This document shows positions 2,474-34,685 of a stretch of DNA of 64,000 bases, piece after piece. The stretch comes from Escherichia phage naam. The stretch is taken from sequence record MN850630.1; one strand, given 5' to 3'. The notes under the pieces are model-generated. The model worked only from the letters and a program-made list of their open reading frames with translations, ran no database searches and was not told where the DNA came from. A program made the translations under genes and the position numbers. Positions within the stretch are counted from its first letter, which is position 1. Every line of letters begins with the position of its first letter.

Positions 2474-2480
2474 CTGTTTT

Positions 2481-2510
2481 GCCCTCGCTTCGGCGGGGGC
2501 TTTTTGTTTG
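2481..2510 (+). terminator. Rho-independent terminator, UUCG-tetraloop hairpin plus U-tract
   Basis: gccctcgc-ttcg-gcgggggc followed by tttttgtttg, directly after the fibre stop codon. Confidence 0.8.
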
Positions 2511-2512
2511 TA

Positions 2513-2541
2513 TTGCGTATTAACTCAAAATCTGGTAAAAT
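2513..2541 (+). promoter_or_regulatory. Sigma70-like promoter (TTGCGT-17-TAAAAT)
   Basis: -35 at 2513-2518, -10 at 2536-2541; spacer shares the motif aaaatctggtaaaata with the promoter at 8024. Confidence 0.5.
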
Positions 2542-2572
2542 AACTATCATGATTGTTTAACCTGGAGGCACA

Positions 2573-3163
2573 ATGTTTTTATGGGAAAGGCCTAGATACC
2601 TTCCAGATATTAGATTGGAGCTGCTGGCAGATATTGTTACGTTTAAAAGTCCGTTTACAGGTAAAACGCAAAAAGTAACCTATGCCACACCTAACTGGAA
2701 AGGCACTTTGACGGTTTCCAATATCAGCGAGTCACAGTTGCTAGAGCTTAAGAGCTTTGTTGATCAGGTGTATAAAGATGGAAACATCTTTCTTATTAAA
2801 ACTTACGGTCACTCAGTTACAGCTAATGAGCCAATCGCCCTTGGGCCTACTGGTAACGACGATTTTTTGAAGACGGTTGGGTGGGAGCCAAACAGAGACA
2901 TAGCCAGAGCTGGGGATAAAATATCTGTCAATGATGAATTGAAAGTGGTAACAGCTCCAGTGCGTAGCGATGGTGTTGGGTCTGCTGTTATAAGCATATC
3001 TCCAAGACTTAGAAAACCTATTGCCGCAGGGGACACTATGAAGATAATAACTCAATCCCCGAAGGGTAGGTTTCATATCAGAGATATTTATAAAATTAAG
3101 CAAAAAGTCGATGCTATGCAAAAAGGGGATAATATAGTTATCAACTTCTTTGAGGATTTCTAA
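2573..3163 (+). CDS. Minor tail / tail-tip protein (position as lambda gpM/gpL), function tentative
   Basis: ORF with RBS ggagg; first of three small genes immediately upstream of the J-like gene; TLTVSN motif. Confidence 0.5.
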   Translation: MFLWERPRYLPDIRLELLADIVTFKSPFTGKTQKVTYATPNWKGTLTVSNISESQLLELKSFVDQVYKDGNIFLIKTYGHSVTANEPIALGPTGNDDFLKTVGWEPNRDIARAGDKISVNDELKVVTAPVRSDGVGSAVISISPRLRKPIAAGDTMKIITQSPKGRFHIRDIYKIKQKVDAMQKGDNIVINFFEDF

Positions 3164-3164
3164 G

Positions 3165-3716
3165 ATGATCAGAGCGCCATTAGATAATTTATTTCTTGAA
3201 AAGCTGGAGCTTGATGGTGTTGAGATCTTAATTGCTGCAAAGCTGGAGCTACCGACAGGAACTGTCAGGGTGTGCTCAGGCACTGGTGTTGTAGTAATTG
3301 AGGGGCAACATTTTATAGGGATAGGGGGATCAGCAACATTAACTGCTGTGTCTGAGAAAGATGCCACCAACTTCGGATCTGTGGTAGCAACATTGAACGG
3401 GTTTGATCCTAAGTATGTGGGTGATCTGCTGAAGACGGAGTATTCTGGTTGTCGTGCCACGTTGTACATTACCGCTATGGAGAATGGTCTACCTGTCACA
3501 ACTAATGGCTTGTTTGACGGCCTTATAACAGATATGGCTATTCAGACAGGTGAGAATAGTGCTTTGTCCATATCCATCTCTTCCATCTTCAACAGTTGGT
3601 TAAGAGGTTTTCCTTATCGGTACACGGAGGAAAGCCACAGCTCAAGAAACGATAATGACAGATTTTTTAAATATGTGGATCAGGTGGCGAGCCGCCCGAT
3701 CATTTGGGAGGTTTAA
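3165..3716 (+). CDS. Minor tail protein (tentative)
   Basis: ORF track starts at TTG 3150; the ATG at 3165 has an RBS (gagga) 8 nt upstream and TAATG-type coupling to the next gene. Confidence 0.5.
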   Translation: MIRAPLDNLFLEKLELDGVEILIAAKLELPTGTVRVCSGTGVVVIEGQHFIGIGGSATLTAVSEKDATNFGSVVATLNGFDPKYVGDLLKTEYSGCRATLYITAMENGLPVTTNGLFDGLITDMAIQTGENSALSISISSIFNSWLRGFPYRYTEESHSSRNDNDRFFKYVDQVASRPIIWEV

Positions 3717-4141
3717 TGAGCACACACCCTCGTTTAGTGGATTGGCAAGAAAGATTGTGGAAAGTGTTTGACGAAGAGGCCACCATACCTTTTGAATGGG
3801 GATTCCACGATTGTTGCACCTTTGCGGCTAAGTGTGTTGATGCCCAATACGGAACAGATTTTCTTTCCAACTTCGAAGGAACGTATAAAACAGAGTTGGA
3901 AAGCAAAAGATGGTGCATGCTTCGTTTCAAAACTACACACCTGCCTACTATTTTTGATCTCTTTATGACTCGACTGGATACTCCTAAACAGGTTCAGCGT
4001 GGCGATATTGTTATTTTCGAAGGTCTGAACGGGCTCACCGCTGGTGTGTTCTGGAACAACCAGATTTGCGCGAAAGGTGATAAAGGGGTCTTTATGTTCG
4101 ACATGAAAGATTCTATCGTTGTTGATGTCTGGAGGTATTAA
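3716..4141 (+). CDS. Tail-tip assembly protein with NlpC/P60-like Cys motif (gpK-like, tentative)
   Basis: ATG at 3716 overlaps the upstream stop (TAATG); motif GFHDCCTF...RGDIVIF; sits directly upstream of the J-like gene. Confidence 0.5.
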   Translation: MSTHPRLVDWQERLWKVFDEEATIPFEWGFHDCCTFAAKCVDAQYGTDFLSNFEGTYKTELESKRWCMLRFKTTHLPTIFDLFMTRLDTPKQVQRGDIVIFEGLNGLTAGVFWNNQICAKGDKGVFMFDMKDSIVVDVWRY

Positions 4142-7100
4142 TGCCAATTGCAATGATTGATAACATCGTTGCTTCTGCAAGATCTTCAAGTTATGACTGG
4201 AACGCATCCAAGGCAGCTCTGGCTGACAGCCTGAACACTGTGACCACCAGAACTTTGGATAAGATTTTTGAGGGCAACAAATCTTACAGAAGTCAGCAAG
4301 ATAGACAAAAGCTTCTCAGATCTTCTGCTGCACCTTGCTCTGTAGTGTATGGAAAGACACGCACATCTGGATTGCTTGCGTTTTTGGAGCAGGATAGCGA
4401 CAGAACCCTCCATTGTGCTATTGTTCTTGCCAATCACCCTCTGGAAGGTATAGAAGATATACTTATCGACGGTAATCCTATTTCCTCGTATGGAGATCTG
4501 GTATCGTGGGAGCTACATAACGACAGAAAAACATCTGATCCTTTCATGGGTACACACTGCCCATCATGGTCACCTGACATGATAGGTAGAGGGATCAGTT
4601 GGCTACGTGCCAGCTTCAGGTTTGACCCTAACAAGTTTCCTTTTGGGTTGCCAAACGTTACACTCGTCAAGATTGGTAAAAAATGCTATGATCCTCGTAT
4701 CAGTAAAGAGGTGTACACCAATAACGCTGCCTTGGTGATCCTAGACTATTTAAGAACGTACCTTAAATGTCCTGACGAAACCATCAACTGGGAGTCCTTC
4801 AAGGAGGCTGCCAACATATGCGACGAGGCGGTAAAAAACGCAGACGGAACCAGTGAGCGCCGTTACACCATTAACGGTGAGTTTGACATGGATGAGGCCC
4901 CAGCAAGTATTATGGCAGAAATGCTGAAAGCTTGCGGTGCAGATCTTAGTTATGTTGCTGGTAAGTATGGTTTGCTGGTTGGTGCATACTATGGCCCAGC
5001 AACAATGACACTTAGTGAGGACTGTGTCTGTGGTGAGGTTAAGATCTATCCGGAAGCCTCATTTGACAAAAGATCCAACACAATAACTGGCAGATTCACT
5101 AGCCCGACCAAAGGGTATTCTGAAACAGATTTTCCATCAGTGTTTGTCCCAGAGTGGATAGAGAAGGATGGAGAAAGAAAGATAATCGATATAGATTATC
5201 GCTTTGTTACCAGTCCTTACCAAGCTCAGCGTGTTTCTGCAATCTTCCTAAGACGTGCTAGAGCTGGCAGGATTATTGAAGTCACCTGCAATATGCGAGG
5301 TTTTAAATTTAAGCCTGGCCGTTATGTTACAATGGACCTCCCAAGTATTGGTATTGTGGGCCAAGAAATGAGGGTTCTTGAATGGGAGTTCACCAAAAAG
5401 GGCGGTGTCAAGGTAAAACTTCGTCAAGATGCTAAAGAGTGGAATGATGCCACAGGGCAACTTCCGGATTCCGGCGATGTAGATATTCCGATATCCCCGT
5501 CCGGTGTAGCTCAGCCGCAAAACTTCAGATACTCCGTTCTCCAAGCTGGGGAAGTAACTCACGGTGTTTTGGCCTGGGACAACGTTGGGACTTACGCTCA
5601 AAATATTGTGCAGGTAAGAAAGAACGGAGAGATTGTTTGGACAGCACAGACAGTTGAGCAGTTTGTCCGTGTTGAAGGTCTGACTAAAGGTTCCTACACA
5701 GCCACTGTTGTTGCAACATCTTATAAAGGTGGTGTATCTCCAGAAGCGTATTGTGAGTTTAACATTCAGGCACCTGAAGCTCCGGTTTCTGTAGAGGTTA
5801 AGCAAGGATACTTTGCTATCACCTTGATTCCGCATAGTAGGGATTTAGCAAGTGTTAGCACCCAGTATGACTTTTGGACATCCGGTATGACAAGGTTGCC
5901 CGACACCAGTGATGCAACCGTTACTTCAAACGCCACCCGTATGGGTGTTGGTTCAACTTGGACATCTGAAGGTCTGCAGAACGATAAGGTTTATTATTGG
6001 TATATTCGAACCACAAACGCTTTTGGTAGTTCTCAGTTTGTAGAATGCGCTGCACGCTGCTACACCTCTATTGAGGATTTGATGCCTCAGATAGATGCTG
6101 AATTCAAAAAGACAGAAACTTATAAAGAGTTGATGAGCACTTTGGATTCCTCTATTGAAGAGGTTGAAAATCGTGTCACAGAACTTAACAGGTACATGGA
6201 TGGTAGGGTAGATGAGGCATTCCAGCAACTTGGAGACAGAATAGGTGCGGTAGTTACAGAGACAACTCAGAAGTTTGAGGATGTCAATGGCAATATCACA
6301 GCGCTGGATAGGAAACTTGTTGCTGCACAGAACAAGTTCACCAACGATCTGAACACTGAAAGTGGAAGATTGGCATCCCTGATTGAGACAACCAATAAAG
6401 CAACTACTGATCTTCTGAACAAAAAGACAGAGGCTTTAGATGAGAAATTGGTTGCCGCCAAAGGTGAGCTGGTAGAGCAGATAGAGGGAGTTGAGAGCGG
6501 GTATTTAGCCGGAGATAAAACTCTGGATGGTAAGATCAATACTCAGAGAACAGAACTTGACGCAAGCATCTTGAGCACTAACCAGGCCACTGTGGATCTT
6601 TTGAACAGGACATCTGAAACTCTGGATCAAAAGATTAGTCAGACAAACGCGACGGTATCTAAAAACTATACCACCCTTGACGGCAAGATAACTACCGCAA
6701 AAACTGACCTCAACACCTTGATTGCCAATACCAACAAGGCCACCACTGACTTGTTGAATCAGAAAACATCTGCACTGTCAGAGCAGATAACTTCTGCACG
6801 TGGGGAGATTTCTACCAACAAGCAAGCGATTGATGCTTTGGATGGAAAACTGACCTCCACAAAAACAGCGCTGGATGCTACAATTTCCGATACCAATAAA
6901 GCCACTGTGGACCTTATCAACGGCACAGCGTCAGCTATTCGTCAAGAACTTGCTGTTGCTAAGCAGGAGATCATTGATGATGTTGGGGATGTGTCTGAGA
7001 TCAGGGCTGCAGTAGCTACAACATCTAAGGCTGTAACCGACTTAGAGGGTAAAGTAAATGCTCAATGGGGCACAAAAATACAGGTAGACTCCGCAGGGAA

Positions 7101-7980
7101 TAAATATGTTGCAGGTATTCAGTTGGGGATGGAAGGGTCTGGAGGCCAAGTTCAATCCTACTTCATGGTTAGCGCAAACAATTTTGCGGTATACAACCCT
7201 GGCAATGGAACAGCAACCCTTGCTTTCGCAATCAAGAACAACCAAGCGTTCTTGAAAGACGCTTTTATAGAGAATGGCACGATCTCCTCTGCCAAGATTG
7301 CACAAGAAATTTCGTCAAACAACTACGATGGCAACGGGTACCATAAATACGGTTGGTATATTAACAAGAACGGGCACGCCCAATTTATGGATGTGTGGGT
7401 GAAAGGCAACATCAACGCCAGTTCTGGTAACTTCACAGGGGCAGTTAACGCCACTAGTGGTACCTTCCGTGGGGATGTTTATGCCAATAATGGTAGCTTT
7501 AGAGGCACCATAGATGCAACCGGAGGTACCTTCCGTGGTCGTGTAGAAGCTTCTGTTATCCGCGCTAACCAGTTCGAAGGTGCAATTGTTGCACACAGGA
7601 CTTACGGAGATTGTGCTCCAGTATATAACTCCCGGCAAAGGGTTTGCCGTTGGAGGTGGAGATACGTAGATAACGTTTCAGGTCAGGGTAAGAACGTAAC
7701 ATTCTTCTTTAAACTGAATGGTACTCTTGCCAGCTCCCAGCTTAACGTTTGGATAGCCAGACATCAAATCCTTGCAGGTAAGAAGTACGGAAACGACAAC
7801 AACGGCATGTGTGCGGTAGGGATAACGGGTCTTGGTGAACAAACCATAGATATTGTTGTTGAAATCTACACACCATGGTCAACGTCTTCTGTAACAGGGG
7901 TCGCAATATCCTGTCCTACTGTTGTGGTAAGCCGTTCTAACTCTAGTTTCCAAGGACCTTGGAACGAGTCTCACGACTAA
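4141..7980 (+). CDS. Tip attachment / central tail fibre protein, lambda J-like, with internal coiled-coil repeat insertion
   Basis: Segments APEAPVSVEVKQGYFAITLIPHS, YDFWTS and YYWYIRTTNAFGSSQFVE match my recollection of the lambda J FN3-like region; about 300 aa of TNKATTDLLN-type repeats in the middle. Confidence 0.8.
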   Translation: MPIAMIDNIVASARSSSYDWNASKAALADSLNTVTTRTLDKIFEGNKSYRSQQDRQKLLRSSAAPCSVVYGKTRTSGLLAFLEQDSDRTLHCAIVLANHPLEGIEDILIDGNPISSYGDLVSWELHNDRKTSDPFMGTHCPSWSPDMIGRGISWLRASFRFDPNKFPFGLPNVTLVKIGKKCYDPRISKEVYTNNAALVILDYLRTYLKCPDETINWESFKEAANICDEAVKNADGTSERRYTINGEFDMDEAPASIMAEMLKACGADLSYVAGKYGLLVGAYYGPATMTLSEDCVCGEVKIYPEASFDKRSNTITGRFTSPTKGYSETDFPSVFVPEWIEKDGERKIIDIDYRFVTSPYQAQRVSAIFLRRARAGRIIEVTCNMRGFKFKPGRYVTMDLPSIGIVGQEMRVLEWEFTKKGGVKVKLRQDAKEWNDATGQLPDSGDVDIPISPSGVAQPQNFRYSVLQAGEVTHGVLAWDNVGTYAQNIVQVRKNGEIVWTAQTVEQFVRVEGLTKGSYTATVVATSYKGGVSPEAYCEFNIQAPEAPVSVEVKQGYFAITLIPHSRDLASVSTQYDFWTSGMTRLPDTSDATVTSNATRMGVGSTWTSEGLQNDKVYYWYIRTTNAFGSSQFVECAARCYTSIEDLMPQIDAEFKKTETYKELMSTLDSSIEEVENRVTELNRYMDGRVDEAFQQLGDRIGAVVTETTQKFEDVNGNITALDRKLVAAQNKFTNDLNTESGRLASLIETTNKATTDLLNKKTEALDEKLVAAKGELVEQIEGVESGYLAGDKTLDGKINTQRTELDASILSTNQATVDLLNRTSETLDQKISQTNATVSKNYTTLDGKITTAKTDLNTLIANTNKATTDLLNQKTSALSEQITSARGEISTNKQAIDALDGKLTSTKTALDATISDTNKATVDLINGTASAIRQELAVAKQEIIDDVGDVSEIRAAVATTSKAVTDLEGKVNAQWGTKIQVDSAGNKYVAGIQLGMEGSGGQVQSYFMVSANNFAVYNPGNGTATLAFAIKNNQAFLKDAFIENGTISSAKIAQEISSNNYDGNGYHKYGWYINKNGHAQFMDVWVKGNINASSGNFTGAVNATSGTFRGDVYANNGSFRGTIDATGGTFRGRVEASVIRANQFEGAIVAHRTYGDCAPVYNSRQRVCRWRWRYVDNVSGQGKNVTFFFKLNGTLASSQLNVWIARHQILAGKKYGNDNNGMCAVGITGLGEQTIDIVVEIYTPWSTSSVTGVAISCPTVVVSRSNSSFQGPWNESHD

Positions 7981-10274: not shown

Positions 10275-12346
10275 TGGCAACAGCTATTTTTAAACCTTAC
10301 CGTGATTACTCTACAATGGCTGCACGGTTTCATTACCGCACAGTTCAGGATACTGCCGTTCCTGGTAGGGATTATAATCATGTTGAGGGTGATGTAACTA
10401 TCCCAATTGGGGCAACCAGTATTGAGATCCCAGTGGAAATTGTTGACAAATTACCCAACAGGTTGCCAAGAAGCTTCTTTATGGAGTTTTCATCAAAATC
10501 TCAAGGGGTGATGATTGGAACACAAAGGGCGAAATGTACAATAGTTTCAGATGAGAATCTTGACAGGATATCTTGGGATACTGTCGAGGAGAGAATGTTT
10601 CACCCAAGATATTGGGTTACAACTACCCAGCAGACTGAAAGCACCTGTATTGTTGCAGATAATAACTGTTGTATTAACCGTTTAGTGTCAAGAACATATG
10701 GAGGTATGGCTGGGTGCATTTGGGAAACAGTTGACAAGTATGACCATTTCGGTATTGGGTTTGATGATCATTATGAGATGAGAAATACCAAGCTTTGGTT
10801 CAGAATGTCAATAACCAACGCCAGCAACTTCTCCACTCCTGAAAAGATGATTATGACTGTAGACCTTGTTGATGGCACAATCATCTATGTTCCTTTAGCT
10901 CAATATGCTGTCAGCATCTCAGAGGATAAGAATGTTGCAGAAATTCATATTGATTTCGAGGACTGCGTCGGGATGGACCAGAACAACAATATGATGGGTG
11001 TTGATCCTCGACAGGTGAGAAGGATTTTAATACCGCTTATGCCTAAAGATTGGGTAAGCAATAGCACAAACCCAAGAACGGAAAATGTAGAGTGTGAGTT
11101 GCGCCTAGATCTGCTTCAGCCAGACACAGGCTGGAAAATGATGCAACTTAACAATATTCAGGTGAAAGAACACGACGTTGGGATCTGCACAGCATATGAC
11201 GATATGTGGAACGTGTCTCCTTTAAGGGTGTTGAACAATATCAAGCGTCTGGGCTATACCGGAACCATAAACCATTATGTTGGTATGAGTCATTATTATG
11301 ACTACACATGGTCAGGAACTCAATGGTCTATAAACAGAACAGGAGCGCTAAACGCTGCAGCTTATAAATGGCATGATGATTTTATGTACAATGCCAAACG
11401 ACATAACTTCGACGTTATGCAATCTGTAAGTTTTGAGCTTTTCAGCGATGCCTGCCCGTTGGAATGGACCCAAAGAGACTGGAACGATAACTACGCTAAA
11501 ACAGGGTATACACCTTGTAGCTACCTCCTGTCTCCAACCATTGAAGAGGGTATGAATTTCCTTACTGCAGTATTTAAGAATTTTGCATCAGCCGCTATGA
11601 GAAACAACCTGCCAGTGATTATGCAGGTTGGTGAACCGTGGTGGTGGTACAATACCGATACTCGTAGACCTTGTATTTATGATTACCCTACAAAGCAGGC
11701 GTTTTATGATGAGACAGGTGAGTATGCATTAGATATTGGGACTATTGACGATCCTAAAACTGGCGGTGTTTACGACAAGTATGTAGCATTTTGTCGTGGT
11801 AAGCTTGGCGCTCGTATTGCGGCTATTTCAAAGGCAGTAAAGGCACACGCTGCATCAGCTCAGATGACAGCTTTGCTGTTTTTCCCAACCATTATGGAAA
11901 CCGAGCTTACGCAAAAGCTGAACCTTGCTGACCAATATAAAAAGGAAGCAGGTGCTCTTGATTTCTTCTGCACTGAGTGCTACGATTGGGTGATGCAGGG
12001 AGGTATTGAAAAGGCAAAAGAGTCTGTAAACATACCTATCGTTAAGTTAGGTTGGCAACCGTCTGAAATACAATACCTTGCAGGGTTCGTTCCTAGTAAA
12101 GAGCTTGCTCCGGTATATGGCTACGACCCAACTAGGAATTACCAAGAATTTTTATGGAGATGTATTTGCGGAAACATGGCAACTATAGAGTATAGATACC
12201 CTGAGGTAAAACAGTATGTATGGGCATATCCGCAAGTAATGTCTGACAGCATCACTGTTACCGCTAGAGATTCTACCGTGCTTCATATGGGGCAGGTTGC
12301 TCTGAAAGGGTATGTAGAAGATGTTGTCCCGCCAGACTTCTCATAA
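10274..12346 (+). CDS. Hypothetical large tail-associated protein (possible proximal fibre or tailspike component)
   Basis: 690 aa ORF with RBS aggagg; directly upstream of the side-fibre/Tfa cassette. Confidence 0.55.
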   Translation: MATAIFKPYRDYSTMAARFHYRTVQDTAVPGRDYNHVEGDVTIPIGATSIEIPVEIVDKLPNRLPRSFFMEFSSKSQGVMIGTQRAKCTIVSDENLDRISWDTVEERMFHPRYWVTTTQQTESTCIVADNNCCINRLVSRTYGGMAGCIWETVDKYDHFGIGFDDHYEMRNTKLWFRMSITNASNFSTPEKMIMTVDLVDGTIIYVPLAQYAVSISEDKNVAEIHIDFEDCVGMDQNNNMMGVDPRQVRRILIPLMPKDWVSNSTNPRTENVECELRLDLLQPDTGWKMMQLNNIQVKEHDVGICTAYDDMWNVSPLRVLNNIKRLGYTGTINHYVGMSHYYDYTWSGTQWSINRTGALNAAAYKWHDDFMYNAKRHNFDVMQSVSFELFSDACPLEWTQRDWNDNYAKTGYTPCSYLLSPTIEEGMNFLTAVFKNFASAAMRNNLPVIMQVGEPWWWYNTDTRRPCIYDYPTKQAFYDETGEYALDIGTIDDPKTGGVYDKYVAFCRGKLGARIAAISKAVKAHAASAQMTALLFFPTIMETELTQKLNLADQYKKEAGALDFFCTECYDWVMQGGIEKAKESVNIPIVKLGWQPSEIQYLAGFVPSKELAPVYGYDPTRNYQEFLWRCICGNMATIEYRYPEVKQYVWAYPQVMSDSITVTARDSTVLHMGQVALKGYVEDVVPPDFS

Positions 12347-26918: not shown

Positions 26919-27182
26919 TCAGAAACCCTCTAAAAAGCTCTTGTAGAAAACAATCTCAGTATCAACACCAGTCACAATCTTGTCGTTCCTGATTTCATCG
27001 GTAAGATAGGTATCAAAACGCAGAACCTGGGTCGTGTTGTCACACATCCACTCAGCTGTGACCATTGCGAAAATCTTAGCATCTTCATTATCTGGTGTGA
27101 ATGTTACCACCTCACCGCATTTAAACTTTTCAATAGGTTGCGTATTAGCTTTCGGTTCTGCAATAGTAATTTTCGTGGTCAT
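26919..27182 (-). CDS. Hypothetical protein
   Basis: 87 aa ORF. Confidence 0.5.
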   Translation of the reverse strand: MTTKITIAEPKANTQPIEKFKCGEVVTFTPDNEDAKIFAMVTAEWMCDNTTQVLRFDTYLTDEIRNDKIVTGVDTEIVFYKSFLEGF

Positions 27183-27448
27183 TACTCTTCCTCCATAGTT
27201 TCACCAAATACTTCGATACAGGCATCGAGCTCGGTTGCTTTCAGCTCCCCAACAAAATCTTTCAGTTCTTTCTCGTCCAGATCGTAAGCCCACACACAAG
27301 AAGAACATGCAGATTTCACAATCAGCAGCGTAGATACACGACCTGACTCTGTGATCATGCTCACAATGGTTCCTACAGGGAACGTGTTGATAGCTTTTTT
27401 AACTGGGCGTTCAGCTTTGATTACTACCTCTGTTGCCATAAATAACAT
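27182..27448 (-). CDS. Hypothetical protein
   Basis: 88 aa ORF, start overlaps the downstream stop. Confidence 0.5.
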   Translation of the reverse strand: MLFMATEVVIKAERPVKKAINTFPVGTIVSMITESGRVSTLLIVKSACSSCVWAYDLDEKELKDFVGELKATELDACIEVFGETMEEE

Positions 27449-27454
27449 CCTCTC

Positions 27455-28936
27455 TCACTTGGCGTACTCGATTAATTCTACAGTTTTCCCAAAGCTCGGG
27501 ATATAATTTTTATTATACCCCTCGGTGAGAACCCATAAAGTATCGTACTTTTTCCACTTGTTGTCAACAGCCTTTTGTTCAAAGTTATGCTCAAAGTATA
27601 GGTCGGTCAGGACGATGACATCTTTTGCATTCGGTATGTTGGCATCCAGATACTCAAACACACAAGCAGCTGTTGTGCCCCATGTTGAGTGGACCTCATA
27701 GTTGATCATCTCGTCTATGTTGCCGCGAGTGTATACTTTAACCTCTCCAACCTCAGTTGACCAACAGAACATTGTAACCTTAAACTCTTTATACAGATTG
27801 CACAATCCGGTGATTTCATTGAACATTTTCTTTAAAGTTCTTTGAGAGATCGAGCCAGAAACGTCTAAAGCCACCACAATATCTATGGTGTTTTCCGGAT
27901 TACGACCAGGAACAATAACGTGCTGGTTCTTGTTTATAGCCCCAACTTTTCGCATTGTGCTGGTCAAAGAACCAGATCGGCGACCAGGTTTTCTGTAGGT
28001 CAGTTCAGCCTTTCGTTTAGACAACATGCGTTGCTTAATAATGTCTATATAGTTGATTACAGGCTTGCCTCTGTTCTTGACGAACTCACGCACCGCCTCA
28101 GGGCAACGACCTCCGGAAGCTTGCATTGCTGCCTCCAGCATGTCACCAGAGTCCTGCATGGCCTGATCTTTATCAGATTGGCTGATTACAGGTTGTGGCT
28201 GATCATACCCCATAGCCTTTCCAAGATCATCACTGGTGCCACCGTTCCCACTCATGTGATCATCGGTTTGTCGCTTATCCCCTTGAGAGTTCTCACCTTT
28301 ACCGCTCTTACTTTTACCGTTATTCTGATCTCTTTGCTTATCAAGAACTGCATAGACGTTCTCAGCAATCCATCCATGAAACTTCATGTCGCAGTAGCAG
28401 CTGGCTAAGAAGCCAAAAGGCTTACCTTTTACGAACGTAGTGCTTTTCCCCTTCGGGAAGAAAACACAAGGGGGCTTACTAAAGTCAACCACAAGACCTG
28501 TGTTGATAACGTGATCACAAGCAATATTGAACAGTTCTGGCTCAAAACTTTTACCACGGACCAGGTGATCACAGATAATATGCCCCACCTCATGTGACAG
28601 AAGAAAGGCCACCTCCTTCACAGATTTGGGGGAATAGAAAACCTCAGCCATCCCAAACTGTTCGTCAGTTAGAGAAGCCTTAAGAATAGCCCTGCGTTCA
28701 TCAGCCAATCCCATAATGAACTCAGGACTGTAATAGATGCGTTTATGGTCGGTTGCCATGGTAGAGCACCATGTGTGGTTTTCTACGAACTGCAACCCTG
28801 ACAGTAGCGTGCCATAAAACGGCAGCTTTTCAAGGAGATACATACGTGCAGCCTGCAACATTCTCAGGGCATCATCTTTCTGTGAGGCAATGATTTCTGA
28901 ACTTCTGCTATCCATTAAAACTCCAGAAGGGGCCAT
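27455..28936 (-). CDS. vWA-domain protein with N-terminal HExxH metallopeptidase-like domain (partner type of MoxR-class AAA+ ATPases)
   Basis: HEVGHIICDH zinc-peptidase-like motif in the N-terminal third; MIDAS-like VVALDVSGSIS in the C-terminal third. Confidence 0.7.
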   Translation of the reverse strand: MAPSGVLMDSRSSEIIASQKDDALRMLQAARMYLLEKLPFYGTLLSGLQFVENHTWCSTMATDHKRIYYSPEFIMGLADERRAILKASLTDEQFGMAEVFYSPKSVKEVAFLLSHEVGHIICDHLVRGKSFEPELFNIACDHVINTGLVVDFSKPPCVFFPKGKSTTFVKGKPFGFLASCYCDMKFHGWIAENVYAVLDKQRDQNNGKSKSGKGENSQGDKRQTDDHMSGNGGTSDDLGKAMGYDQPQPVISQSDKDQAMQDSGDMLEAAMQASGGRCPEAVREFVKNRGKPVINYIDIIKQRMLSKRKAELTYRKPGRRSGSLTSTMRKVGAINKNQHVIVPGRNPENTIDIVVALDVSGSISQRTLKKMFNEITGLCNLYKEFKVTMFCWSTEVGEVKVYTRGNIDEMINYEVHSTWGTTAACVFEYLDANIPNAKDVIVLTDLYFEHNFEQKAVDNKWKKYDTLWVLTEGYNKNYIPSFGKTVELIEYAK

Positions 28937-28948
28937 TGGCCCCTGTCA

Positions 28949-29992
28949 TTATTTAACGTGTTTGAAAATACCTGCCAACTCGGTCATTGTCATGCGGGTG
29001 GTCTTCATAAGATCTGTCATAGCTTTCTCCATAATTGGAGATACTACCATAAAATTTCCTTTAGTGAAACCTTTATTCCAGTCGGTCACCAACAGTGGTT
29101 TAAGTCCAGCCCCGAGACGTTCACCTGTTAAAGCACAGCATTTGCGAATATACGAACTCTTAAATTGGCTGAACGACAGATCAACTTTCATACCTGCATC
29201 GTAGAACGTTTGACAATAGAAAGTATAAGCCTTAGCAATCTCAACATCATCAGGCAGTGCAGGAACCTCTTCTGCAATCTCCTCTTCGACCTTCTGAGGC
29301 TCTTTTTCCTCTTCAGGAGTCTGTTCTTCAATTTCTTCTGTCACAGTCTCGTTCACGATGTCTGAAATATGTTTGTTGGCTGCACGATCAGCCATGAAAT
29401 TTTTAAAATCCTGCATTGGTGACATATCTTCTTCCTCTTCGTCAAATAGTGCTAGTTTATCTTCTTCTGTCCCGTATTGCAAGATGAAATCTTCAAAAGT
29501 ATAATCACCTTTCAATTTCTCCATACGCTCTTCGCTCAGGTGGAGCATCATCTGCTGGACAATTTTTCGATCGGTTTTGTCTTTAATCAGGATTGCAGTC
29601 TTTTTATCTACCAGACAGTCTTTCAGAGCGTTGCACCTCAACCCTACCACACAACAATTGTCAATTGCGTAAGGACCTTCATCATCTATACGCTCTAAAG
29701 ATGGGTAGAAAGGATTTCCCAGTCCGTTTTCATCTGTGTGCATGTCGAAAGGTATAAGAGTGTAGTCGCATACCCCTTCTCCTAAAAGTTTTTTACCAAA
29801 TAGGAGGTATTCTTCCCACGACAGGTCGAACTCTATATCTCGTTTCCGTGCATTATTCTGTTTGCGTCTATATTTTTTGAGCAGGCGCTCTAACTCTTCT
29901 GGTGTATAATATTTTTCAAGATTCATGAGTTGTCTCTCGTGCTCTGTAAGTGAAGAAATCGTATCAATTGTCTCAACAGATGTCAACATCAA
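28949..29992 (-). CDS. Hypothetical protein with very acidic central linker and possible degenerate HNH-like motif
   Basis: 347 aa; TTG/ATG start at the divergent promoter hub; LERIDDEGPYAIDNCCVVGLRCN; long D/E-rich stretch. Confidence 0.55.
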   Translation of the reverse strand: MMLTSVETIDTISSLTEHERQLMNLEKYYTPEELERLLKKYRRKQNNARKRDIEFDLSWEEYLLFGKKLLGEGVCDYTLIPFDMHTDENGLGNPFYPSLERIDDEGPYAIDNCCVVGLRCNALKDCLVDKKTAILIKDKTDRKIVQQMMLHLSEERMEKLKGDYTFEDFILQYGTEEDKLALFDEEEEDMSPMQDFKNFMADRAANKHISDIVNETVTEEIEEQTPEEEKEPQKVEEEIAEEVPALPDDVEIAKAYTFYCQTFYDAGMKVDLSFSQFKSSYIRKCCALTGERLGAGLKPLLVTDWNKGFTKGNFMVVSPIMEKAMTDLMKTTRMTMTELAGIFKHVK

Positions 29993-29999
29993 AAACGTG

Positions 30000-30028
30000 T
30001 TGACTTTACTCTAAATCTCCGATATAGT
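30000..30028 (+). promoter_or_regulatory. Sigma70-like promoter (TTGACT-17-TATAGT) in the divergent hub
   Basis: -35 at 30000-30005, -10 at 30023-30028; drives the 30069 gene. Confidence 0.6.
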
Positions 30029-30068
30029 GCACCCATTCGAAAGAAAACTAACATAGGAGCACTTACTC

Positions 30069-30968
30069 ATGGCAAATCTTAACAGTTTTAGCACCAGGTG
30101 GCAACAGGATATAACAACCAATCTTTCAGCTGGGGATATCCTTTCTGCAATTTACGAGGCTTTGGATGATAAAGCTACTTCAAGATCGGTTTGTACTAAT
30201 CCGCTAATTCCTATGGTGATGAAGGTAATTGAGCGGAGGTTGGTATCCGGGTCTGATAAGTGGACATACCTTGATAATGGAGGGCATACTTACTCCAACG
30301 GATATGTTGATATAAAAGTAGAATACGCAGTATCATACCGCCGGAGCGGTTCTGTAACTTTCAACTTCTCTGGAGGTTTTCGATCTCTGGCTACTTCACC
30401 TTTTGTTTCCTCAGAGGAGAAGTATGAGCTGCCATTTCTTTGGATGATGGCTAACGCGACAGGAAAAACCCCCGTTAGCATCCGAGTAAAATACAACTAC
30501 AACGGATCTAGTAAGATCTATGCCGAAAGTGTTTCAGCAAGTTTTTATTTTGTGATGGGGGATGGAATCCTCAAACATATAAAGATGTGCGATATGCATG
30601 ATGTTATAAATGAAGTGACTGATAAGAATGTTCTAGTGAAAGACCTCAATAATTTTTATACACCTGGAGACTATTACGTCAACCGTCCACTGTGCATCTT
30701 TAATGCCGCACACCCTTTGGGTGAGTATTTGATCGCTAATAGCGATATTGCCAATAACCGCTTCGAGGTGGCAAGAGTACAGAATGGGGTATTGACATCT
30801 TGCAAGAGCGGTGATAAGTTTACCGAAGAAGAGATGGGTGTTTTAGAGATGATGGGATATAAGTGTAGCCTTTGGGTAGATGAGGTGTTTAATGACGGCA
30901 TCTATGGACAGGATATTTACCCACTAAAGAAGTATACTGATTCCAGTTTAATTTACGCGGAGATTTGA
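30069..30968 (+). CDS. Hypothetical protein
   Basis: 299 aa ORF with RBS aggag; first gene of the long + strand block. Confidence 0.6.
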   Translation: MANLNSFSTRWQQDITTNLSAGDILSAIYEALDDKATSRSVCTNPLIPMVMKVIERRLVSGSDKWTYLDNGGHTYSNGYVDIKVEYAVSYRRSGSVTFNFSGGFRSLATSPFVSSEEKYELPFLWMMANATGKTPVSIRVKYNYNGSSKIYAESVSASFYFVMGDGILKHIKMCDMHDVINEVTDKNVLVKDLNNFYTPGDYYVNRPLCIFNAAHPLGEYLIANSDIANNRFEVARVQNGVLTSCKSGDKFTEEEMGVLEMMGYKCSLWVDEVFNDGIYGQDIYPLKKYTDSSLIYAEI

Positions 30969-31243
30969 CTATGATGAAGGCATGTGGTAGTGTATATTAT
31001 GTGGGTGAAAATATACAGGCAGACAGTGTGTGGAAATCCATTAAATCCACCACCGACGATGCCTTCTTGAGTGGGCTATGTTTCCCCAGTCCAGGTGACA
31101 TTCTCCCTTACCCTGGAGATTTTGTTGTCAATAAGATGGACGGTTACACCGTGTGCCTGATGGTTGAAAAAATCTTTTTAGACACTAGACACAATCACCG
31201 TCTTGTGCTAAAATTCAAAGAATGTAAAATGACAGTTGCCTAA
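30965..31243 (+). CDS. Hypothetical protein
   Basis: 92 aa ORF, start overlaps the upstream stop. Confidence 0.5.
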   Translation: MTMMKACGSVYYVGENIQADSVWKSIKSTTDDAFLSGLCFPSPGDILPYPGDFVVNKMDGYTVCLMVEKIFLDTRHNHRLVLKFKECKMTVA

Positions 31244-31255
31244 GGAGGCCTATCA

Positions 31256-31612
31256 ATGTCTAAAGTTACTTATCGTGCAGCTATTTACTGCAATGAGCAC
31301 CCAATCAATAATGATGGTCACTGCTTTTTTAAAGAAAATCAGTTGGGCTGTATTGCCCTCCCTGATGAAGGGGAAGGTTATATGATTGCATTGACAGGGT
31401 TTGAGCCTGAAGCCTTGGAAGCCAATCTGGACTACCTGGTAGAGAAGGGTGCTGCAGACTTGGTTGCCAATGGCCTCTCCATAAGCCTTGAAGAAGTGGA
31501 GCGCTTCATGGGCAATTACCGTGTAGTGCGTGAGTTTACTATCGAGGTGGAAACTCCAGAGTGGGGTAGCACTGAAACTAATGCTGAAGAAAAAGAAGAG
31601 GGGGTAGAATAA
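31256..31612 (+). CDS. Hypothetical protein
   Basis: 118 aa ORF with RBS aaggagg. Confidence 0.5.
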   Translation: MSKVTYRAAIYCNEHPINNDGHCFFKENQLGCIALPDEGEGYMIALTGFEPEALEANLDYLVEKGAADLVANGLSISLEEVERFMGNYRVVREFTIEVETPEWGSTETNAEEKEEGVE

Positions 31613-31869
31613 TGAAAGTGCAGATCTTGACTAATGCCGAAAAGATGTTTATTGAAGATACACCTTTTGAAGCTGGTGAACTACAGTTCGTTTATTTTGT
31701 TGACTTAGATAAGGTGTTTCCTGCACTGAATATGGGGCTGGATGAAGTTCCTCATAAAGTTTTGCGCCAAGTTGTTCGCGCCTTGGCTGCTGACGGGGAG
31801 TTTCACACCCTTGAAGATATCCAGACCTATGGGTATCTTGAGCTGCAACGGGAAGAAGAGGTAGACTGA
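31612..31869 (+). CDS. Hypothetical protein
   Basis: 85 aa ORF, translationally coupled. Confidence 0.5.
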   Translation: MKVQILTNAEKMFIEDTPFEAGELQFVYFVDLDKVFPALNMGLDEVPHKVLRQVVRALAADGEFHTLEDIQTYGYLELQREEEVD

Positions 31870-31871
31870 TA

Positions 31872-32252
31872 ATGGCACAGTGGAAGACAACAGTTGATCT
31901 CCATGAACAGTGGCTAGGACGCATCGATGAAGACGGGAAACTGGTAGATTGGGACAACAAGCATGTTAGCGAGCTGGCAAGTATCGTAGCTGACAAGTTA
32001 CGTGCCAAGTTTTCTGAGCGGCTGGATCCTGATAATTTAAAGTTCGACCCTGAATTGGAGGATGTTGTATACTACTTCGACACTGTGGATGACTACGATT
32101 CGTGGTTTGCAGCAATGAATCATTTCCCTCAAGGTTCTGGTATGCGCCGAATGGAAGAAGATTATCCTCCGTGTGAGCAATTCAATAGCGCAATGACTTG
32201 CCTCTATGATTGGGCAGATAAGAACCTTGTCTGGATTCGAACTGCATTCTAG
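31872..32252 (+). CDS. Hypothetical protein
   Basis: 126 aa ORF. Confidence 0.5.
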   Translation: MAQWKTTVDLHEQWLGRIDEDGKLVDWDNKHVSELASIVADKLRAKFSERLDPDNLKFDPELEDVVYYFDTVDDYDSWFAAMNHFPQGSGMRRMEEDYPPCEQFNSAMTCLYDWADKNLVWIRTAF

Positions 32253-32255
32253 CAG

Positions 32256-32561
32256 GTGGGGGCAGGGATGCCGCTTAGAAGAGTAATAAACATGTTATAC
32301 CAGAAACACGAACTTTGTGCAGAAAAAGAGTTAAATTTTGACAAAGTTATCCACAAATATTGTTACGGGAAAACCGGAAGATACCTAAAAAGGTGCACTC
32401 CAGCATTCTTTCACCCCAGCAGGCGACTAAGCCCTGAAGAAGCAACAGCAGAAAGGGTTGCATACAACTGGGAAGTTGTGTACGATATTGACAGATCCGA
32501 TGTGACATCTGTTTTGGAAAACTTTGAAAACACTTACACACAAGTAGAGGACTTTTACTAA
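32256..32561 (+). CDS. Hypothetical protein
   Basis: 101 aa ORF. Confidence 0.5.
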   Translation: MGAGMPLRRVINMLYQKHELCAEKELNFDKVIHKYCYGKTGRYLKRCTPAFFHPSRRLSPEEATAERVAYNWEVVYDIDRSDVTSVLENFENTYTQVEDFY

Positions 32562-33745
32562 TGTCAAGAAACGTATTTGAAAGTGGTCAAATCACTGTCC
32601 GTGAGTTGCCAGCCATCATTCAGTTTGCCCAGCGTCATAACCGATCTGTCCTGATTTTAGGACCAATGGGCGTGGGGAAGAGCCAGGTGATGAAGCAGAT
32701 CGCTAATAATATGTTCGGTGAGCGAGATGACAACCTGGTTGACGTGCGGCTGTCAGATAAAGATCCTGCCGACTTATCTGGGCTACCTATCCCTGTAGAA
32801 GCGGATGGAACTACACGTACAGTGTTTGCAATTCCAGAATTTTGGCCTGCAGATCCGGACTGGAGCGGAATTATCTTTCTGGATGAGCTCACTCATGCAG
32901 ATAATTACCTGCAAAAGGTTGCAATGCAAATTATGCTCGACCACAAGTGCGGCACCTATGCATTCCCCAAGGGCTCTGTTTTTGTAGCTGCAGGTAACCG
33001 TTCTACAGATGGTGCGGTTCTCTCGGCGCTCGAAGCTCCTCTGGCTAACCGCTTTATCATTGTAGAGGTTACAAGCAATGCAGAGGTGTTTATTGAGGAC
33101 TACGCATTCCTCAACGGGGTGCACTCATCTGTAATTGGGTATCTGAAAAGAGTTCCATCAGCTATCGATAATTATGAGGCTATGGCTGAGATTAATTGTC
33201 CATCTTTTGCCACACCGCGATCTTGGGTTGCTGCATCTGACATCTTGCACGATTTTGACAGCGGTATTATTTCTGACGCTATGGCCCGTGTTCTTCTGCA
33301 AGGTGCTATTGGTCACACTGCAGCGGTAGAGATCTGGACTTACCACACTAAGAAACGCAACTTACCGGAAATCGGTCGGATTATGGCAGGGGGTTGCAAA
33401 GAATACGTAGGTCCTAAACAGCCAGACATCTTGTGGATTCTTGGGTCTGAAGGTTGTATCGCTATTCGTAATATGATGGAAAATGCAAGTATCTCTGACG
33501 AAGATCTTGTTAGCTGTGTGGCAAACTTCCTCGATTTCCTTTGGGAAAATTTCAAGGACGAGAACCGAGATTTTGTATTCTCAGTCTTTATGGCAATGAT
33601 GAAGCCTAATGCCTTAGGAAATGCCTTACTTATCGGTAAAGGGCGTGACAAGATTGTTGCTCAGCTGATCAAAGCATACCCAAACCTGATGAAGATTGTA
33701 AAAGAGTTTGGTGAAGAGTTTAGCGCCATTTTAGCTAAAGCTTGA
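32561..33745 (+). CDS. AAA+ ATPase, MoxR/CobS-like (AAA_5 type)
   Basis: Walker A GPMGVGKS, Walker B IIFLDEL, sensor-1-like AAGNR. Confidence 0.7.
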   Translation: MSRNVFESGQITVRELPAIIQFAQRHNRSVLILGPMGVGKSQVMKQIANNMFGERDDNLVDVRLSDKDPADLSGLPIPVEADGTTRTVFAIPEFWPADPDWSGIIFLDELTHADNYLQKVAMQIMLDHKCGTYAFPKGSVFVAAGNRSTDGAVLSALEAPLANRFIIVEVTSNAEVFIEDYAFLNGVHSSVIGYLKRVPSAIDNYEAMAEINCPSFATPRSWVAASDILHDFDSGIISDAMARVLLQGAIGHTAAVEIWTYHTKKRNLPEIGRIMAGGCKEYVGPKQPDILWILGSEGCIAIRNMMENASISDEDLVSCVANFLDFLWENFKDENRDFVFSVFMAMMKPNALGNALLIGKGRDKIVAQLIKAYPNLMKIVKEFGEEFSAILAKA

Positions 33746-33754
33746 GGAGGTTGT

Positions 33755-34135
33755 ATGGCTAAAGTAGGTAAGCGGGGAAACTACCTAGTGGTATTGACCG
33801 AGGAGCCGGAGAAGGAGTACGAATGCAGCTCCACTTGCGTGATCGATATCCGAGAAAAAGATGTAGATGAAATCTGGTTTGAAATACTAGACGCTTGCGA
33901 CAGCAGTGATTATTTCTTCATCTATGTCAACGATAAGGCTGGGTTCTTCCATGACGACGGAGAGTTGCCGTATGAAATCTATGAACTTGTAGAGGCTTGC
34001 CATCGTGGAGATGCGGAGTTGTTTGGCCTACGGCTGAAAAGCGGTAAATTCTTCTATCAAGATGAGTGCATGAATCTTCATAACTTTGTAGAGGGAACTT
34101 GCAACGATGGAGAGATTTTGGCACACTACGATTAA
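33755..34135 (+). CDS. Hypothetical protein
   Basis: 126 aa ORF with RBS gaggagg, followed by a terminator. Confidence 0.5.
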   Translation: MAKVGKRGNYLVVLTEEPEKEYECSSTCVIDIREKDVDEIWFEILDACDSSDYFFIYVNDKAGFFHDDGELPYEIYELVEACHRGDAELFGLRLKSGKFFYQDECMNLHNFVEGTCNDGEILAHYD

Positions 34136-34147
34136 TTTCTAAGACCT

Positions 34148-34175
34148 CCCCCGCTTCGGCGGGGATTTTCTATTT
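34148..34175 (+). terminator. Rho-independent terminator, UUCG-tetraloop family
   Basis: cccccgc-ttcg-gcgggg followed by attttctattt. Confidence 0.75.
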
Positions 34176-34184
34176 GGAGTCATT

Positions 34185-34685
34185 GTGAAAATTAAGATCT
34201 TTGCTATTATTTTGAGCGCACTTTTATCGCTGCCTGTTGTTGCAGCACCAAAACAAAAAGTATATCATACTTGCAAGCCATCAGATACTAAGGAAAACAT
34301 TCTGGCATGCAATATCTACAGGGAAGCTAGAGGAGATGGCACGATGGGTATGCTGGCATCTGGGTTTGCCACACTAAACAGGAAATCCCACCCTAAATAC
34401 CCAGACACTATAAGAAAGATTGTCTACCAACCTAACCAGTTTTCGTGGACAAACCACGGCAAAACTTTTAAGGTGACAGAAAAAGATTCATGGGATCACG
34501 CTAAAAGTCTTGCAAAGATGCTTCTAAAGGTCTATAATAACAACCATGTTGCATACATGGCTATGGACATAACAGGTGGAGCAACACACTACCATACAAC
34601 CAAAGTACGACCGAAATGGGCAAAAAAGATGCAGAGGACAGCTCAATTCGGGAGCCATATCTACTACAAGGAGCGCAATAAATGA
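34185..34685 (+). CDS. Secreted cell-wall hydrolase, SleB/CwlJ-like (candidate endolysin)
   Basis: GTG start; N-terminal signal-peptide-like segment KIKIFAIILSALLSLPVVAAP; motifs NIYREARGDG, LNRKSHPKYPDTI and QPNQFSW typical of the SleB family. Confidence 0.65.
   Translation: MKIKIFAIILSALLSLPVVAAPKQKVYHTCKPSDTKENILACNIYREARGDGTMGMLASGFATLNRKSHPKYPDTIRKIVYQPNQFSWTNHGKTFKVTEKDSWDHAKSLAKMLLKVYNNNHVAYMAMDITGGATHYHTTKVRPKWAKKMQRTAQFGSHIYYKERNK

Follow-up and report, generated by a model that had tools for sequence, protein, structure and literature searches.

Escherichia phage naam (MN850630.1), of which a stretch of 64,000 nucleotides was analysed (hereafter the window), carries two genes on opposite strands that encode an AAA+ ATPase and a protein with a metallopeptidase-like and a VWA domain. 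An earlier reading of this stretch, made from the letters alone and here called the sequence-only reading, had located an open reading frame (ORF) of 493 amino acids at 27455-28936 on the minus strand and one of 394 amino acids at 32561-33745 on the plus strand, and had proposed them to be the two halves of a split ATPase/VWA pair. Both ORFs were found at these positions; they are 3,624 bp apart and diverge from an intergenic region at 29993-30068. As comparison stretch we used the 7.2 kb around both genes (window positions 27000-34200), which shares about 95% identity with over 100 public genomes of rV5-like coliphages, genus Vequintavirus. The two genes are essentially identical to deposited ones, some of which are already correctly annotated: in phage AlexBoehm bas56_0053 is labelled 'putative metallopeptidase' and bas56_0061 'ATPase / MoxR ATPase', and other public records use 'VWA-like domain containing protein' or 'MoxR ATPase'.

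The 394-residue protein contained all AAA+ motifs that had been noticed in it, and their positions were verified: the Walker A motif GPMGVGKS (residues 34-41; 32660-32683), the Walker B motif IIFLDEL (residues 104-110 with D108 and E109; 32870-32890) and the sensor-1 region AAGNR (residues 143-147 with N146; 32987-33001), each conserved in the alignment. Further downstream the segments PLANRF (33038-33055) with the invariant R164 and FATPRSW (33206-33226) with the invariant P219 and R220 were located. R164 is presumably the arginine finger, a role given by analogy with MoxR proteins, and R220 is by the same kind of analogy a putative sensor 2. In an alignment of 32 ATPase homologs the residues G37, G39, K40, S41, D108, E109, N146, R147, R164 and R220 were invariant.

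The gene fell into PHROG 1297 (E 1.4e-110). Homologs of its product with 31-38% identity (70-92% query coverage, E ~1e-42 to 1e-45) carry PF07726, PF07728 and sometimes PF20030, the models named AAA_3 (MoxR family), AAA_5 and bpMoxR; typical relatives with these domains are ~34% identical (E ~1e-44). In the AlphaFold2 model of the ATPase, with a predicted local distance difference test score (pLDDT) of 84.6, a clear beta-hairpin (residues 75-81 and 84-90) follows strand 2 and precedes Walker B, a candidate helix-2 insert; ahead of the sensor-1 strand are two short stretches marked as strand (~129-135), which may be a pre-sensor-1 hairpin. Both were judged from the secondary-structure string only. 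When the model was compared to the PDB with Foldseek, ranks 1-17 were taken by NorQ (9qh4-9qhg) and CbbQ2 (6l1q) with E 1e-8 to 5e-7; the NorQ entries were solved with the VWA partner NorD. A direct PDB sequence search gave P-loop-level Clp/p97 matches only, uninformative on the subfamily, and NCBIfam held no useful family for either of the two proteins. Because of the AAA_3/AAA_5 homologs and the 17 best PDB matches we assigned the ATPase to the MoxR class, NorQ/CbbQ type; this assignment rests on homologs and a predicted structure, not on the protein's own Pfam matches. The sequence-only reading had called it MoxR/CobS-like. The MoxR part stood, as supported by the homologs and the NorQ/CbbQ2 structures, and the CobS part found no specific support: there was no CobS family among the Pfam and NCBIfam matches, and the nearest structures were NorQ and CbbQ. 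Nor was a cobaltochelatase pair of the CobS/CobT type supported, BchD being only one of many VWA matches of the partner.

The partner gene (27455-28936, minus strand) encodes a protein of the DUF2201 family that consists of a zincin-like domain, a disordered linker and a VWA domain. Pfam detected DUF2201_N (PF13203, 'putative metallopeptidase') with E 4.6e-28 and 99 bits against a cut-off of 23.2, and DUF2201 (PF09967, 'VWA-like') with E 3.6e-11 and 43.7 bits against a cut-off of 26.4; the order DUF2201_N then DUF2201 was common to 59 of the 59 homologs that have both domains. Profile searches confirmed the domain assignments on both sides, DUF2201_N/DUF2201 in the partner and the MoxR Pfam families in the relatives of the ATPase. 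[quoted passage not shown] Its other residues are G420-T421 (27674-27679) and T444-D445 (27602-27607). Among 40 aligned homologs, down to ~20% identity, the zincin residues H115, E116, H119, H124 and D141 were invariant in all 40, as were the MIDAS residues D358, S360, G361, S362, G420, T421 and D445, and T444 was at least 90% conserved. By this alignment the predicted VWA domain carries a complete MIDAS (DxSxS...T...D). Invariance across such distant homologs shows that the motifs of the ATPase and of the VWA protein are under selection and did not arise by chance.

The AlphaFold2 model of the partner had a pLDDT of 84.9, and its VWA part matched VWA folds. The low-complexity linker (residues ~209-234; 28235-28312), which joins the peptidase domain to the pre-VWA/VWA part, had a pLDDT below 50 at residues 209-226 and 228-234 and varies in length across the family. 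Across the HExxH helix the profile of the N-terminal domain matched selecase MJ1213 (E 7e-4), the M48 peptidase 3c37, HtpX and BepA; these M48/minigluzincin structure matches were weak but consistent, and a direct PDB sequence search with the 493-residue protein gave no match. All Vequintavirinae partner proteins share an insertion of ~40 residues (residues ~76-113) directly before the HExxH helix; it was not present in the N4-like, jumbo-phage and bacterial homologs (columns ~128-165 of the homolog alignment). Regarding the start of the gene, the first ATG of the ORF sits in a hairpin at 28928-28944, and the next one (Met8, 28915) is preceded by a GGAG Shine-Dalgarno sequence. The real start is likely Met8, as judged from these sequence signals, giving 486 amino acids, the length used by the public annotation and by a protein cluster of 536 members.

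Several annotations of this gene differ from the domains found. PHROG 1314 corresponds to the DUF2201 VWA/zincin family and is labelled 'HNH endonuclease'; we rejected the label, since Pfam finds no HNH domain in the 493-residue protein. The HNH or homing endonuclease label has spread to GenBank (SPLA5a, Cassandra and many Vibrio phages), and the PHROG 1314 genes concerned include those of naam (27455-28936, minus strand), of locus L002 (11986-13422) and of Cassandra (locus 5965-7149). The label is probably annotation by adjacency, originating from real HNH genes inserted alongside in other phages. Other records name the partner gene 'anti-sigma factor' or 'DNA repair ATPase'.

To learn how the two genes are arranged elsewhere we retrieved 80 environmental viral loci from IMG/VR via the ATPase and scanned them with hidden Markov models (HMMs) of both proteins. 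In 69 of the 80 loci the ATPase gene was followed by the VWA gene, adjacent and on one strand, with gaps of 87-590 bp; in nine the contig ended within ~1.1 kb downstream of the ATPase, and the remaining two, one rV5-like and one Seunavirus-like contig, were divergent. No locus with room for the partner (71 loci, 69 of them adjacent) lacked it. The ATPase gene thus stood directly upstream of the VWA gene on one strand in 69/71 viral loci with room and in 7/8 other lineages sampled, though not in naam. The pair was adjacent in W70 (unclassified Vequintavirinae; gap 87 bp), in the Agrobacterium jumbo phage Atu_ph07, in Aeromonas phage phiA009 and in Bacillus phage Goe21, and adjacent save for an inserted HNH gene in Certrevirus CB7; the Schitovirus G7C has the order gp24, HNH gp24.1, gp25. 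On the chromosome of Sulfurivermis fontis an AAA_5 gene is followed by a DUF2201 gene. The claim that the two proteins are a cognate, usually adjacent pair was therefore borne out for this subfamily by the IMG/VR loci and the annotated genomes, with the split as the exception. Pseudomonas phage Cassandra, a PA5oct-like jumbo phage, has four genes between the two, which are 2.85 kb from each other though still on one strand (locus 1964-7149), and this layout is a second, independent loosening of the pair. One of the intervening genes encodes a 498-residue protein likewise labelled 'homing endonuclease'. The 87-bp spacer of W70 (locus 11891-11980) contains a promoter-like TTGACA...TAATAT and a hairpin followed by T6, and because of these elements the pair in W70 may not be strictly co-transcribed either.

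Both genes were found in the same phage groups. When each protein was searched with tblastn against 50,697 phage records, the numbers of records at 95% identity or more were nearly equal (118 and 117), and the same was seen when records were counted by organism name: Escherichia 211 and 213, Pseudomonas 104 and 108, Pectobacterium 26 and 26, Cronobacter 17 and 17. Across 17 non-redundant lineages the pairwise divergences of the two proteins correlated with r = 0.92 (Mantel 0/2000). Pairs that include split lineages followed the same trend, with a VWA/MoxR identity ratio of 0.99 compared to 0.90 in unsplit pairs. As far as the sequences tell, neither gene has been accelerated since the split, which fits a continued joint function.

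In naam the ATPase unit and the VWA unit both begin at one 76-bp intergenic region, where a consensus scan found candidate back-to-back sigma-70-like promoters (29958-30028). The plus-strand match is TTGACT-17-TATAGT at 30000-30028 and the minus-strand match TTGACA-17-TACGAT at 29986-29958; their -35 boxes make an inverted repeat, GTCAACA-N9-TGTTGAC, at 29982-30004. This stretch is presumed from its sequence to be a shared control region for both units. Since both genes lie downstream of the same back-to-back promoter region, they are probably still made, and still work, together.

It could be argued that in rV5-like phages the genes became functionally independent after the split, each acting alone or with another partner. 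Separate transcription units now hold them at a distance of 3.6 kb, a single mRNA no longer couples their translation and stoichiometry, and the pair in Cassandra has also drifted apart on one strand. Both genes with all catalytic residues intact were, however, retained in every rV5-like and Seunavirus genome sampled; no second VWA or MoxR gene that could serve as a replacement was found in the 64-kb window; the split lineages showed no faster evolution by the above identity ratios; and both units start at the same promoter region. We consider such independence very improbable.

The divergent split was confined to Vequintavirus (3.6 kb) and Seunavirus (3.9 kb) among the lineages sampled. In both, the ATPase unit continues to SleB and rIIA, and the VWA gene lies behind an Srd-like 'anti-sigma' gene. 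Within the Vequintavirinae, Certrevirus and W70 keep the outgroup arrangement. As only Vequintavirus and Seunavirus are divergent and the genes are adjacent elsewhere, we concluded that the split is a derived rearrangement and that the ancestral layout was the ATPase gene followed by the VWA gene on one strand. The ATPases of Vequintavirus and Seunavirus are 50-54% identical, compared to 35-38% with those of Certrevirus and W70, a pattern consistent with one rearrangement event before the two genera parted. Most likely this was an inversion that crossed the divergent promoter region and had one of its ends in the ATPase/VWA spacer; it would yield exactly the observed layout. When the flanking genes of split (rV5, Seunavirus) and unsplit (CB7, W70) genomes were compared, only the ATPase, the VWA gene and SleB were detectably shared. 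The derived split of a tightly linked pair is the sole new element in this layout, and we did not find it stated in the literature searched.

Free-standing HNH genes lie exactly between the ATPase and VWA genes in CB7 (CB7_109, locus 11475-11987) and in G7C (gp24.1, locus 3918-4394). Their HNH cores are 46% identical over 61 residues (E 5e-16), and Certrevirus and Schitovirus are very distant from each other. The ATPase/VWA junction, at which the rV5/Seunavirus rearrangement also parted the pair, looks like a recurrent homing site. Given HNH insertions in two distant phages, DNA breaks in this spacer are plausible, though we offer this as speculation.

The naam pair belongs to a known, still uncharacterised module within the broad MoxR/VWA class, represented by bacterial AAA_5 + DUF2201 pairs and by gp24/gp25 of phage N4. 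The latter count among the 14 N4-like core genes and among the middle genes, with no function known for them (PMC4193335, PMC2784036). The N4 gp24 (AAA ATPase) and gp25 (vWFA protein) of the Schitoviridae are homologous to the naam pair and alike in domain content: gp24 and gp25 of G7C, annotated as similar to those of N4, matched the ATPase and VWA HMMs at E 2.9e-47 and 8.2e-90. The proteins are, however, only ~21-27% identical in sequence, and the N4-like genes are adjacent on one strand (with the HNH gene between them in G7C) whereas those of naam are 3.6 kb apart on opposite strands. The bacterial pair of Sulfurivermis fontis has the same Pfam architectures in the same order (HMM E 5.9e-73 and 4.7e-118); such pairs are chromosomal, adjacent and uncharacterised, while the naam pair is phage-borne and split. 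In the literature searched we found neither a functional study of the pair nor a biochemical study of any DUF2201 family member, in agreement with the sequence-only reading, which had assigned the pair no role in infection.

NorQ, which helps to insert iron into nitric oxide reductase, matches the naam ATPase best in structure among characterised systems (E ~1e-8). In NorQ/NorD a finger of the VWA domain enters the pore of the ring, the client binds to the MIDAS, and a linker in NorD is stretched by ATP hydrolysis (PMC13036017, PMC9976466). The NorD VWA was among the structure matches of the partner, and both proteins have an N-terminal domain and a C-terminal VWA domain with MIDAS, joined by a disordered linker (PMC9976466). 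In NorD the N-terminal domain is no zincin peptidase, unlike that of the naam partner, NorQ/NorD mature a respiratory enzyme, and the naam ATPase has an extra C-terminal helical region of ~110 residues compared to NorQ. CbbQ2 (6l1q), the second-best structural match with 24% identity over the aligned region, also works with a VWA partner; CbbQ/CbbO is a Rubisco activase, however, a client with no place in the phage biology here, and CbbO lacks a peptidase domain.

We consider it likely that the two naam genes encode two subunits of one conserved machine, the N4 gp24/gp25 module, which was rearranged in the ancestor of Vequintavirus and Seunavirus and whose parts probably still act together. 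By analogy with NorQ/NorD the ATPase would form a hexameric ring on which the VWA domain of the partner would dock. The MIDAS metal site may then grip an acidic residue of the target protein, and ATP hydrolysis would pull on or remodel the partner or the target, whereupon the attached zincin domain would cut the target. The overall logic would be that of a two-piece, substrate-specific, ATP-dependent protease, like FtsH split in two. FtsH also couples an AAA+ motor to an HExxH metalloprotease, as proposed for naam, but this is an analogy and not a homology of systems: FtsH is a single membrane-anchored polypeptide of another AAA+ clade with a peptidase of the M41 family, and it has no VWA/MIDAS targeting domain. 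We favour an ATP-driven, MIDAS-targeted protease tentatively, at somewhat less than an even chance, because the N-terminal domain is a zincin with an invariant catalytic glutamate.

The main alternative, which the same resemblance to NorQ/NorD would also suit, is a non-proteolytic chaperone for the maturation of, or metal insertion into, a metallo-enzyme of phage or host, for instance a nearby enzyme of nucleotide metabolism, with the HExxH domain as a metal- or target-binding module and the whole likened to NorQ/NorD, CbbQ/CbbO, CoxD/CoxE and chelatases. Every characterised MoxR/VWA pair serves to remodel or mature enzyme complexes (PMC13036017, PMC9976466, PMC7159879), NorQ and CbbQ2 are the closest structures of the ATPase, and the partner has the domain layout of NorD (PMC9976466). 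Moreover, in several phages the module is found among genes of nucleotide metabolism or replication: G7C has dCTP deaminase and ThyX there, Atu_ph07 has DNA polymerase, glutaredoxin and RNA ligase, and Goe21 has gyrB. Yet no homolog departed from E116 or from the metal ligands, as expected of an active peptidase over a metal carrier, the N-terminal domain resembles true M48/minigluzincin proteases, and no one candidate client enzyme was consistently adjacent across the lineages. We therefore regard a chaperone of this kind as unlikely.

As to when the pair acts, most lineages have the module in regions of early or replication type, and the N4 homologs belong to the middle genes; for these reasons we favour an intracellular role, early or in the middle of infection, over one in virion assembly. 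The pair might instead be a chaperone of virion assembly, a part in tail development having been proposed for the MoxR/VWA proteins of the archaeal virus ATV; PMC7159879 cites a MoxR-vWA 'archaeal phage-tail assembly system', and the minus-strand block of naam adjoins tail-fibre genes. The middle genes of N4 are, however, not late structural ones (PMC4193335), and the immediate surroundings in naam are nonstructural (rIIA/rIIB, a helicase and the anti-sigma-like gene), which together with the location of the module in other lineages makes this role highly unlikely. A further step would be that the pair is an uncharacterised type of two-component, ATP-dependent, MIDAS-targeted metalloprotease that N4-like, rV5-like, RaK2- and PA5oct-like jumbo phages and some Bacillus and Agrobacterium jumbo phages use early to cut a specific host protein, either for takeover or to disarm a defence. 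This is possible but doubtful; if true, the natural split in rV5-like phages would show that both parts of the protease assemble in trans.

A MoxR-vWA ternary conflict or defence system (Kaur et al. 2020, PMC7159879) was also considered, for which we looked for a bpMoxR-type ATPase with a third component (VMAP, iSTAND, beta-propeller or FtsH) or for a match to a defence model. It was rejected: the bpMoxR match was sub-threshold and there was no third conserved gene across the lineages. PADLOC returned P-loop-level matches only for the ATPase and none for the partner, with no assignment to a defence system.

A number of points weigh against the proposed two-subunit machine and its activity. The Pfam AAA matches of the ATPase itself were all below the gathering thresholds (bpMoxR E 0.0072, 15.9 bits vs a cut-off of 27; AAA_5 E 0.0078, 16.7 vs 22). 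The 69 adjacent loci are not 69 independent observations, as many are closely related and ~17 non-redundant lineages are left after clustering, and a mirror-tree correlation such as that seen here is expected for any two vertically co-inherited genes. The interaction of ATPase and partner is deduced from gene linkage in relatives. The consensus scan found 21 promoters compared to 14.2 expected in shuffled sequences, and these are pattern matches only. The inversion could not be demonstrated and its path is inferred, since the small flanking genes have no detectable homologs between the two arrangements. Finally, the peptidase activity of the partner is a prediction from motif and fold, and the characterised MoxR/VWA pairs act as maturation chaperones rather than proteases.

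The module recurs in N4-like, rV5-like and several jumbo-phage groups and in bacteria, still without an assigned function. As the rV5 genes belong to this same module, annotators should treat the ATPase and VWA genes as one system, and the 'HNH endonuclease' label that PHROG-based pipelines give to the VWA/peptidase gene, which is misleading, is hereby corrected. In coliphages that are easy to grow, such as the BASEL phage AlexBoehm, the two genes can be addressed separately, which makes a handy genetic set-up for studying the function of the module. The gene order alone is a minor evolutionary detail that will not surprise specialists.

The first gene of the minus-strand unit (28949-29992), co-directional with the VWA gene and immediately upstream of it, is Srd-like and is called 'anti-sigma factor' in public records (PHROG 3118); the order Srd-like gene then VWA gene was also seen in Seunavirus. 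Its longest ORF starts with TTG and has 347 codons. Because the minus-strand promoter match lies within this version, the gene most likely starts at Met23 (29926; 325 amino acids), and the AlexBoehm annotation also starts at the equivalent of Met23 with 325 amino acids. The PHROG labels of this gene conflict with each other (HNH endonuclease, endonuclease VII, Srd anti-sigma factor and 'decoy of host sigma70'). The protein gave no Pfam match and has a long acidic low-complexity region in its middle. Between this gene's stop codon and the VWA gene lies a GC-rich hairpin on the minus strand (28928-28944; AGGGGCCAATGGCCCCT) with a perfect 7-bp stem, AGGGGCC-AAT-GGCCCCT, which covers the first in-frame ATG of the VWA gene. 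As judged from the sequence, it could be a processing, stability or attenuation element of the minus-strand transcript.

On the plus strand six small or unknown genes (299, 92, 118, 85, 126 and 101 amino acids; 30069-32561) precede the ATPase gene; of their products, the 126-residue protein alone had a counterpart that could be detected upstream of the Seunavirus ATPase. The last ORF (32256-32561; 101 amino acids, 89 in the public annotation) ends exactly at the start of the ATPase gene. It belongs to PHROG 13164, which is labelled 'ATPase', yet it has no P-loop, and no counterpart was detectable upstream of the ATPase in Seunavirus, Certrevirus or W70. A terminator-like hairpin with a T-run (CCCCGCTTCGGCGGGG; 34149-34164, plus strand), identified by pattern match only, closes the unit that contains the ATPase gene and a following gene of 126 amino acids.

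Two further observations concern the source sequences. Sixteen GenBank 'Campylobacter phage' records (MG0656xx, host Campylobacter jejuni) are ~95% identical to the rV5-like E. coli phages here; these records are unannotated and resemble mislabelled or contaminant genomes. In the window, both the GC skew and the AT skew are negative at ~24-30 kb, coinciding with the minus-strand gene block, and outside ~24-30 kb the genes lie on the plus strand and the skew is positive.

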